Source: Erythrobacter sp.
GTDB lineage: Bacteria > Pseudomonadota > Alphaproteobacteria > Sphingomonadales > Sphingomonadaceae
NCBI GenBank assembly: GCA_049421965.1
Contig: JBMSNZ010000001.1
Coordinates: 2,016 to 66,015 of the forward strand
Direction of reading: 5' to 3'
DNA: 64,000 nucleotides
The notes under the pieces are model-generated. The model did not search any database. It was given only the letters and a program-made list of their open reading frames with translations, and had not been told where the DNA came from. Positions 23,393 to 39,318 of the stretch are shown piece by piece (the first letter of the stretch is position 1; each line of letters starts with the position of its first letter). The position numbers were made by a program, and so were the translations under genes.

Positions 23393-23393
<1 letters not shown>

Positions 23394-23812
23394 TGCGCGG
23401 GGCTGCGCTTGCGGTGATGGCGCTGGAGCTGGCCGCCTGCTCCCCTGCCATCGCAACCGAGGATGCGGCGAACGAGGTTGCCGCGGCGCCTGCCGCCGAG
23501 GTCGTGGCGGTCACTCCGGCCGAGCTTTCCGCGCTGCTCGATCAAGGCAATATCCGCCTGATTGATGTGCGGACCTACGAGGAAGTGGCGCAAGGGATGA
23601 TCGCGGGTGCCGAACACATTCCGCTCGATCGCTTCGATCCGGCCACGCTTGACCGTTCGGACGGGCGTGAAGTGGTGCTCTATTGCTGGTCCGGCCGCCG
23701 CAGCGGGATCGCAGCCGAAAAGCTCGCCGCCGAGACGGGTGAGCCCGTCCGCCATCTCGAAGGCGGCATCCTGGCTTGGGAAGCGGCGGATCTGCCCGTT
23801 GCCGCCCGCTAA
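23393..23812 (+). CDS. Rhodanese-like lipoprotein
   Basis: TGATG overlap with acnA; LAAC lipobox; LIDVR, LYCWSGRRS, HLEGGILAW. Confidence 0.82.
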
Positions 23813-23824
23813 GCCACTGTAAGC

Positions 23825-24058
23825 GAAAAGAGAGGGCGGCATCACCACCGGGGTGAGCCGCCCTTTGACCAGGGAATATGCCCGCAGCCGAAGCAGGAGA
23901 CTGGCGCTTCGAAGCGGGACTTGCCTTGACCTGCCCCACGGGTCGCAAGGGAGCAGGCCAGTCACAAGCGGGTACCGGGCGGCTGCGACATCAACCCCCC
24001 GTTGGAGCCGCAGCCGCCGCGACGCTCGGGCCAGGAGGCCGTCTCGCTTGCCCATGAT
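23825..24058 (-). ncRNA. Candidate structured small RNA (no known family recognised)
   Basis: No credible ORF; nested helices (24007-17/23979-89, 24045-50/23965-70, 23957-63/23899-905, 23924-50); terminator at the 3' end; a G-U pair favours the minus strand. Confidence 0.4.
23833..23864. terminator. Intrinsic terminator, probably bidirectional
   Basis: AGGGCGGC-A-TCACC/GGTGA-GCCGCCCT hairpin; CTCTTTT tail on minus, TTT on plus. Confidence 0.7.
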
Positions 24059-24212
24059 CAAACACCCTGGGCCGATTCGTCTCAATCGCGTTAACCATAT
24101 GCTGGGCTCATCGCGTGTGCGCCAGAGCCCAAATCTTACTGGCCTTGCCGGGCCTCGTCCCAAAGCGGGACCGGGCAGTGCCCGCCCCTTAACGGAACGG
24201 GCGCTTGTGCCC

Positions 24213-25256
24213 CTATTTGCCCGCTTCGAACAGCCCGCCTTGCGAATCGCCGGACGGTTTGCGCGGCGGCGCCATGTCCAGATGCGTCCAGCCATCATCG
24301 TTGAGCATCCGCCCGCGCGCCGTGCGCGCAATCAGGCCAAGCTGGATCAGATAGGGCTCGATCACGTCCTCCACCGTGTCGCGCGGCTCGGCCAAGCCCG
24401 CCGCCAGCGTCTCCACCCCCACCGGGCCGCCCTTGTAGGTGGTCGCGATCATAGCAAGATAGCGCCGGTCCATCGCATCAAGCCCCAGGCTGTCGATCTC
24501 GAGCCGGGTCAGCGCGTCATCGGCAATCGCGCGGGTGACGGTGCCCTGCCCTGCGACATGCGCGAAATCGCGTACCCGGCGCAGCAACCGGCCGGCAACA
24601 CGCGGCGTACCGCGCGAACGGCGGGCGATCTCGCGCGCGCCAGCGCGGTCAATCGCCAGGCCCAGCAGCCGCGCCGCACGCGTCACCACCAGCTCCAGTT
24701 CGGCATGGGTGTAGAAATTGAGCCGCACCGGAATGCCGAACCGGTCGCGCAGCGGCGTCGTCAGCAGGCCCTGCCGCGTCGTCGCGCCGATCAGCGTGAA
24801 CGGCGGCAGATCGATCCGCACGCTGCGCGCCGCCGGCCCCTCGCCGATGATGATGTCGAGCGCGCGGTCTTCCATCGCCGGATAGAGCACTTCCTCGACC
24901 ACCGGATTGAGCCGGTGGATCTCGTCAATGAACAGCACGTCATGCGGTTCGAGATTGGTCAGCAGCGCGGCCAGGTCACCCGCTTTGGCGATCACCGGGC
25001 CGCTGGTGGCACGAAAGCCCACACCCAGTTCCTTGGCCACGATCTGCGCCAGCGTGGTCTTGCCCAAACCCGGCGGGCCGAAGAACAGCGTGTGGTCCAT
25101 CGCTTCGCGGCGCGAGCGTGCGCTTTCGATGAAGACGCGCAGATTGTCACGCGCAGCCTCCTGCCCCACGAATTCGGCAAGCGACTTCGGGCGCAGCGCC
25201 GCATCGGGATCATCCGGCTGCCGTTCGGGCGAATGGAGGGGAACGGGATCAGTCAT
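24213..25256 (-). CDS. ruvB: Holliday junction branch migration helicase RuvB
   Basis: [38 protein letters not shown]. Confidence 0.97.
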
Positions 25257-38997: not shown

Positions 38998-39018
38998 TTT
39001 CGCTGCCATCGCAAAATG

Positions 39019-39050
39019 GAAAGGGCGGCACCGCAAGGAGCCGCCCTTTC
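39019..39050. terminator. Bidirectional terminator between DUF4136 and yjhX
   Basis: GAAAGGGCGGC / GCCGCCCTTTC perfect 11-bp stem between convergent genes. Confidence 0.75.
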
Positions 39051-39060
39051 GCTTTGTGGT

Positions 39061-39318
39061 TCAGCGGTTGTCGAGCTGCGCCCGGACCGCCAGCAAACCT
39101 TCGCGCGTGATGCGATAGGCCGTGCCGTTCTGGCTGCGGATCAGCCGCCGCTTGCGCAGGCGTGCGAACACGCCAAGCGAGCAATCCACCAGCCGGAATC
39201 CATCGCGGTTGTAACAGTCGACCGTGATTATGCGGCCCCGTTCATCGCGCTGGTATTCGATCCGTCCACCCTGCGCGAGCACATGCAGCACGCGCTGCTC
39301 ATGTTTCGAAATATTCAT
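39061..39318 (-). CDS. yjhX: YjhX/TopAI family (UPF0386) protein
   Basis: 85 aa [51 protein letters not shown] matches the family as I recall it. Confidence 0.85.

Follow-up and report, generated by a model that had tools for sequence, protein, structure and literature searches.

Small RNAs (sRNAs) encoded at the 3′-ends of genes, such as DapZ and MicL of enterobacteria, have promoters of their own and a shared terminator, and two further sRNA families, cuckoo/alpha-r14 and AbcR, have been modelled in Rfam. The cuckoo/alpha-r14 family (NfeR1 and CcsR1–4) is marked by a repeated loop motif, CCUCCUCCC (PMC4615179). CcnA of Caulobacter crescentus is 182 nt long, has a CtrA box in its promoter and is located inside the replication origin, and its C-rich hairpin loop pairs with the G-rich ribosome-binding sites of ctrA and gcrA mRNAs (PMC8959179).

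Here we describe a locus in a 64-kb stretch of Erythrobacter DNA (the window), in which a 400-nt gap (23813–24212) separates a rhodanese gene on the plus strand from a convergent ruvB gene on the minus strand. A sequence-only reading had proposed a novel multi-junction sRNA on the minus strand of this gap. Our data indicate that the gap very probably holds a real RNA gene and, judged by comparison with related loci and known families, the RNA is a new, previously uncatalogued family of a familiar kind, with a lineage-specific range. As with DapZ and MicL, it lies on the same strand as a protein gene, at or just past its end, and is preceded by a conserved promoter-like block. Unlike in DapZ and MicL, this block is in the intergenic spacer and not inside the coding sequence.

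The locus and its coding potential

The ruvB gene (24213–25256, minus strand), recognized from its translation, lies upstream of the RNA element on the same strand, with ruvA directly upstream of it in the window. Its product is 62–86% identical to RuvB across Alphaproteobacteria, and the Pfam domains RuvB_N, AAA and WHD_RuvB were matched in syntenic RuvB homologues. The gene for a rhodanese-domain lipoprotein (23393–23812, plus strand; PF00581) is convergent with the element, and its stop codon is ~13 nt from the 3′-end of the RNA. The conserved RNA core (23825–24050, minus strand), whose 5′-end is putative, measures about 226 nt in the window and 214–223 nt in relatives. At two related loci, ruvA and ruvB are separated by two inserted genes, one of the DsrE family and one that encodes 124 aa and belongs to no known family (L084:4840–5777 and L086:4864–5789); together with the adjoining rhodanese gene, the DsrE-family insertion gives both loci a sulfur-transfer flavour.

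That no credible ORF occupies the gap, as the sequence-only reading had stated, was borne out by base composition: GC content by codon position is flat, at 0.62–0.68 in all six frames, compared with 0.74/0.48/0.81 in ruvB. Two long antisense-type ORFs run through the gap. A 35-aa small ORF (23991–24098, minus strand) was rejected, as indels of 1–2 nt break its frame in relatives and substitutions show no third-position bias.

The same reading had seen no match to tmRNA, RNase P RNA, 6S or SRP, and the window as a whole likewise gave 0 matches at gathering score to Rfam 15, which covers tmRNA, RNase P, 6S, SRP, alpha-proteobacterial sRNA families, riboswitches and ribozymes. Matches of the gap to Rfam 15 were at chance level (E 0.7–7, far below gathering score, with none at that score even at E ≤ 10), and eight homologous loci returned nothing at E ≤ 1. 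A full-text literature search found no description of this RNA. Two weak covariance-model matches were discarded as copies: an apparent paralogue at 39014–39211 of the window reflects only the similar terminator of yjhX, and a match in L054 is only a look-alike terminator. An origin from a mobile element was also rejected, as the window holds no repeats and plasmid and phage collections gave no matches.

Relatives and distribution

A first search for relatives through RuvB, with one genome per GTDB species, retrieved 80 loci, from Sphingomonadales as well as from other Alphaproteobacteria (best identity 86%). In these 80 loci a different gene follows ruvB, and the gap had no homologue by blastn, by nhmmer or by the covariance model. 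Retrieval through the less conserved rhodanese neighbour yielded loci that bear the element. In the rhodanese-anchored contigs (proteins 66–80% identical), the gene order is aconitase–rhodanese facing ruvB with a gap of 380–400 nt, and in six relatives, all metagenomic, the gap is clearly homologous to that of the window (nhmmer E 1e-22 to 1e-82). Our comparative set hence consists of seven distinct sequences, the window and these six, and covariance model R1 made full-length matches in 7 distinct sequences with 150–217 bits. Both nhmmer and the covariance model recovered the element in every syntenic carrier. RuvB of L084, L086 and L100, the only carriers complete enough to compare, is 91–92% identical to that of the window.

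In L097, the most divergent carrier, about 547 extra nt (L097:1463–2059) lie between ruvB and the upstream block of the element; a called ORF of 114 aa in this extra stretch belongs to no known family, and the RNA and its upstream block are still kept. A natural empty site was found in L095 (L095:3424–3460, GCA_947495555.1), where RuvB is 88.7% identical and the aconitase–rhodanese/ruvB synteny is the same: only 37 nt separate the convergent genes, and there is no terminator hairpin. In Erythrobacter sp. NE805 and E. oryzae other genes follow ruvB and the element is absent.

A more divergent form occupies the same ruvB/rhodanese locus in Altererythrobacter sp. GH1-8 (L090:3433–3723, CP171690.1) and in the metagenomic L098 (L098:946–1235), each with a gap of 290 nt. 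These two gaps resemble the element in the 3′ part only, with an H4-like hairpin, CCUUGGUC and a terminator with an identical CCCGGUG loop, and their covariance-model scores are 15–16 bits (E about 0.01). They also have a covarying hairpin of their own (GGAUG/CAUCU in one form and GGACG/CGUCC in the other, loop AUACUUCGAGC). This different structured element is probably a sister small RNA, found in one case in a cultured strain (GH1-8).

The covariance model detected no further copies among the 100 loci examined. A metagenome scan with three invariant motifs gave two matches, both by chance and within an unrelated coding gene. Within the reach of these searches, the RNA occurs only in a single clade of about genus rank, made up of uncultured, Erythrobacteraceae-like bacteria from fresh water.

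Conservation along the gap and strain-level variants

Conservation is distributed unevenly between the two genes. Identity of the core to relatives is 0.53–0.87, compared with 0.60–0.75 for rhodanese coding DNA and comparable values for ruvB coding DNA. A 50-nt block just upstream of the core retains 0.49–0.82 identity. The spacer of about 100 nt between ruvB and this block is at 0.10–0.59 identity to the window.

This poorly conserved spacer 3′ of the ruvB stop codon (24099–24212, minus strand) has two exceptions, a conserved CGTTAA (TTAACG at 24189–24194) and an invariant GTCCC-N5-GGGAC (24157–24171). The latter is a hairpin or palindrome ~45 nt past the ruvB stop codon, in which the stem is invariant, the loop varies and no U-tract follows. 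It is found at the same position in L081, L084, L086, L096, L097 and L100, as well as in the divergent L090 and L098, and the 64 kb contain no second site of this kind (0.09 expected). It could bind a protein or act as an RNA hairpin in the processing or stability of the ruvB 3′-end.

Strain-level variants were drawn from eight metagenomes. The 162 nt upstream of the core showed 11 distinct variant sites and one indel, with 1 SNP falling in the promoter-like block and 9 sites and an indel in the spacer. In the 226-nt core we counted about 12 distinct sites and a deletion of 1 nt; one contig of run X9, ~90% identical, accounts for the deletion and for seven of the sites. Base pairs are kept, restored or compensated by four of the core variants, and four others are located in unpaired segments. 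Variant 24025 C>A turns an A–G mismatch of the window in H1 into an A–U pair; in a strain contig the H4 pair U139–G163 becomes G–C (23912 A>C with 23888 C>G); and variants at 23909 and 23916 retain wobble pairs. Several others are in unpaired linkers or internal-loop positions, and 23904 alters a variable base of the H4 loop.

Overall fold and strand

Aligning related gaps downstream of ruvB, a check proposed together with the sequence-only reading, revealed compensatory covariation in five hairpins. In a MAFFT alignment of the seven cores, 85% of the cells of the five-hairpin model are paired, compared with 35–53% when the 3′ partners are slid by 1–3 columns. Two-sided changes occur in 17 of 56 pairs vs 8.6±2.1 in shuffles (0/500 reach 17), in a set of seven sequences from one narrow clade whose relatedness inflates the statistics. 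Most of this covariation support is carried by H2 and H3, with double changes in 4/12 and 8/10 pairs. The 226-nt core of the window folds with a z-score of −3.7 (0/200 shuffles), and two relatives gave −5.3 and −4.3. Moreover, unconstrained MFE folds of L086 and L100 each contain all five hairpins. In the minus-strand reading, consensus pairs comprise 34 G–U cells vs 9 A–C cells, and this bias and the U-tail fix the RNA on the minus strand, in agreement with the original assignment. A conserved, structured non-coding RNA of about 220 nt with an intrinsic terminator was thus confirmed on this strand, with compensatory changes in seven sequences.

However, the branched architecture that had been proposed with it did not hold, and the comparative data favour an RNA of five hairpins in series. 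The two helices that were to close the junctions, CAAGCG/CGCTTG and GACTGGC/GCCAGTC, are present in the window, but changes in relatives almost only break them: 10 of 13 pairs depart only through unpaired cells, with one two-sided change among the six relatives, and their covariation score is no better than that of shuffles. In the serial fold CAAGCG is the foot of H1 and GCCAGUC is in the loop of H4. The branched fold was rejected on this covariation test. The supposed cUUCGg-type hairpin was also not supported and is really the 3′ strand of H4. In contrast to these elements, the GGCC-UCCU-GGCC hairpin was found at its proposed place, the long stem with a G-rich loop is present with 12 bp, and a terminator scan confirmed the terminator with its U-tail on the minus strand.

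Hairpins and linkers

From the 5′-end, H1 (24022–24047, minus strand, as for all features of the core) has a stem GCGA.../...UCGU of 8–10 bp with 2 pairs changed on both sides, and an apical loop with CUCCUGG, of which CCUGG is invariant. H2 (23978–24018) is a stem of 12–14 bp with invariant GGGG(G) in its loop (23995–24000); 95% of its cells are paired, and double changes include GGCGGCUGC/GCAGCCGCC vs GGUAGCUAC/GUAGCUAC. A single-stranded linker, GUACCCG (23969–23975), follows, in which GUACCC is kept in all seven sequences and the final G in six (A in L096). Neither the consensus nor the folds of L086 and L100 pair this linker.

P3a and H3 together span 23921–23967. P3a pairs UUG (23965–23967) with CAA (23921–23923) and has the weaker support, with 81% of cells paired and zero double changes. 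H3 (23928–23959) carries the loop UUGCGACCCGUG, with GCGACCC (23940–23946) invariant, on stems that vary among relatives (GGCCUGC, CUGGCGG, CUGGUUC and AAUUGGCU).

H4 (23881–23918) is two-tiered, with an outer CCCGC/GCGGG and an inner CGAAGC/GCUUCG stem below the loop GCCAGUCUCCU (23895–23905), in which AGUCUCC is invariant. MAFFT misaligns H4 in two sequences, and its shape was judged from single folds. Folded singly, all seven sequences give the same two-tier shape although the stems differ, for example CCCGC.CGAAGC, GAUG.CUCAGGC (L086) and GAUGCAA.GGCG (L097), and all seven present CCAGUCUCC in a loop of 9–11 nt. Of the anti-Shine-Dalgarno-like tracts that had been pointed out earlier, UCUCCU is conserved and located in this invariant loop, but CUCCCU is not conserved. 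In folds of several relatives the H1 loop is able to close to 3 nt, and hence only H4 is convincing as an open seed.

The linker CCUGGUCAAA (23864–23873) has CCUGGUC identical in six of seven sequences, followed by an A-run of 1–3 A. The AAA of this linker may act, as UUU on the other strand, as the tract that terminates the convergent rhodanese transcript. H5 (23825–23863), the intrinsic terminator, consists of GGGCGGC...GCCGCCC (23834–23863) and a U-rich tail (23825–23833). It is conserved with its U-tail in all seven sequences and shows compensatory changes in the upper stem.

The upstream block

The conserved, putatively promoter-bearing block (24051–24098, minus strand) aligns as ATGGTTAAC, TTGArrCGAATCG and a GTG, with ATnGTT, TTGA and the CG after TTGA invariant in all seven sequences. 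A sigma-70 consensus promoter scan found no site in this block. With TTGArr as −35 (TTGAGA in the window, 24080–24085), a spacing of 17 nt leads to a hexamer that makes a poor −10 (for example TTTGAT or GTCCAA), and a better nAnnAT hexamer is 20 nt away; the candidates in the window are TTTGAT (24057–24062) and GATCAT (24054–24059). Either of these would place the start at about 24047–24051, at the foot of H1. Readings of the block as an EcfG, sigma-54, SigF-type or LexA-box site were rejected on inspection of the alignment, in which spacing or core bases did not fit.

Two motifs that the sequence-only reading had linked to the cell cycle are indeed present. Depletion of GANTC accompanies CcrM methylation in Caulobacter work. 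In the window GANTC is four-fold depleted, with 65 sites vs 262±14 in dinucleotide-preserving shuffles. The GANTC of the upstream block (24074–24078; GATTC on the plus strand) is part of CGAATCG (24073–24079, minus strand; CGATTCG on plus). It is kept in six of seven sequences, as CGATTCG in five and as CGAGTCG in L096, where the substitution GAATC to GACTC preserves GANTC; it is absent in L097. The site also falls within an inverted repeat, CGATT-N6-AATCG (24068–24087), that is kept or G–U-compatible in four of seven sequences. This repeat might be the operator of another protein or a small 5′ hairpin, instead of or besides a methylation site.

The other motif, ATGGTTAA (24091–24098, minus strand; TTAACCAT on the plus strand), has the ungapped form associated with CtrA, is the sole copy in 64 kb and lies 5 nt upstream of the putative −35. 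It is exact in five of seven sequences, one base off in L097 (TTAACTAT) and partly deleted in L096. A full TTAA-N7-TTAA CtrA site is not present in the block. CtrA activation sites are found near −35 (PMC6180460), and GcrA prefers YGAKTCK, a methylatable GANTC ≤40 bp from the start and typically at about −20 or +2 to +30 (PMC4647560). CGATTCG and CGAGTCG both fit YGAKTCK, and the centre of the GANTC is near −26 to −29 from the putative start, compared with the clustering of GcrA promoters near −20. The combination of TTAACCAT with a YGAKTCK-type GANTC suggests, at the level of motifs, CtrA and GcrA/CcrM input. Since both are conserved in most relatives, cell-cycle input is a reasonable hypothesis.

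Discussion

On balance, the comparative data speak for an independently transcribed, lineage-specific sRNA, which would be a trans-acting anti-Shine-Dalgarno regulator and possibly cell-cycle-controlled. According to this model, the conserved 50-nt block would hold a promoter dedicated to the RNA, with TTGArr as −35 and a start near 24047–24051, and read-through from ruvB may add to the supply of the RNA. The RNA would pair in trans with mRNAs at their Shine-Dalgarno regions through the H4 loop, which is invariant and C/U-rich (complement GGAGACU), and perhaps also through the H1 loop CUCCUGG, and would so block translation; Hfq would bind at the U-tail of the terminator. Two properties of trans-acting Hfq-type sRNAs were found here, a 3′ Rho-independent terminator with U-tail and a conserved accessible seed, AGUCUCC in the H4 loop, in seven folds. 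Pairing of the H4 loop with Shine-Dalgarno-like targets, as in the alphaproteobacterial anti-Shine-Dalgarno sRNAs and in CcnA, has roughly even chances of being the mechanism. Within the 64-kb window, target-like sites for GGAGACUGG with ≤2 mismatches numbered 12 vs 19 expected, and a duplex scan for targets in the same window was dominated by GC-rich noise.

The element follows ruvB immediately and shares its strand, in a locus that is fixed beside ruvB in every carrier, and this position would also suit a structured 3′ UTR of the ruvAB mRNA. In that case the RNA would arise by read-through only, and would either act in cis on stability or termination or be processed into an sRNA without its own promoter. 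The terminator scan found no terminator-type U-tail between ruvB and the element, the GTCCC-N5-GGGAC hairpin lacks a U-tract, and a canonical promoter was not found, all in keeping with such a 3′ UTR. We nevertheless consider it unlikely, because the 50 nt before H1 are conserved but the 100 nt to ruvB are not, which is the pattern of a promoter. Moreover, L097 keeps the element and its upstream block despite about 547 extra nt with a called ORF, and a relative whose ruvB and rhodanese genes are just 37 nt apart does without the element. The conserved loops and linkers of the RNA may make tertiary contacts or bind protein, as in a sponge, scaffold or catalytic RNA, instead of pairing with mRNAs. 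About 220 nt and five helices make the RNA longer and more ordered than most seed-type sRNAs, its folding z-scores are very low, and several invariant motifs are complementary to each other (the GGGGG loop with CUCCU or ACCC, ACCCG occurring twice, and CCUGG with CCAG). However, the candidate partners are all invariant, and covariation therefore cannot support them; no ribozyme or protein-binding RNA in Rfam resembles the element, and so narrow a distribution is unusual for catalytic RNAs. Such a structural role seems to us quite improbable.

A gap without any RNA gene is much harder to reconcile with the data. Conserved palindromes upstream (GTCCC-N5-GGGAC and CGATT-N6-AATCG) could be operators, H5 probably terminates both convergent genes and could be a bidirectional terminator, the 35-aa ORF in the window could be a small protein gene, and the whole might be a decayed mobile element. 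But compensatory changes are seen in four internal hairpins together with the G–U vs A–C strand bias, the frame of the ORF is broken by indels, the window is free of repeats, and the element matched nothing in plasmid or phage collections or elsewhere in the 100 loci. We consider these non-RNA explanations very remote.

For the sRNA reading, the upstream motifs raise a more specific idea, which we put forward as speculative and rather doubtful: the RNA may be a functional, not a sequence, counterpart of Caulobacter CcnA in sphingomonads, with a promoter that integrates CtrA (TTAACCAT) and GcrA/CcrM methylation (the YGAKTCK-type GANTC). If so, the C/U-rich and G-rich loops would tie the phase of the cell cycle to the translation of a set of mRNAs, and the site after the recombination-repair gene ruvB would let read-through also feed the RNA. 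If both upstream motifs are functional, the RNA would be among the very few sRNAs outside Caulobacter tied to the CtrA/GcrA/CcrM circuit. Otherwise it would be one more lineage-specific regulatory RNA, of use for annotation and unsurprising. Hardly any sRNAs of Sphingomonadales have been charted, and Rfam does not contain this one. A comparative model is ready, built on seven members, with support for five helices and with loops that are clearly invariant. In addition, the empty-site genome offers a natural control, and a divergent variant is available in the cultured Altererythrobacter sp. GH1-8.

The C/U-rich anti-Shine-Dalgarno motifs in hairpin loops and the intrinsic terminator at the end are shared with cuckoo/alpha-r14 and AbcR1/2, which are trans-acting RNAs. 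However, those RNAs are shorter, whereas the RNA of the window has about 220 nt, five hairpins and no Rfam match. Moreover, CCUCCUCCC is absent from the 226-nt core, whose loops carry CUCCUGG and GCCAGUCUCCU, and the RNA is accordingly not a member of the cuckoo/alpha-r14/CcsR group. With CcnA it has in common an alphaproteobacterial host, a similar size, a CtrA-associated motif upstream and a hairpin loop that is C-rich in CcnA and C/U-rich here. Compared by description, CcnA is located in the origin and presents a CCCC loop, whereas the RNA of the window follows ruvB, presents the loop GCCAGUCUCCU and has only the half-type motif TTAACCAT upstream.
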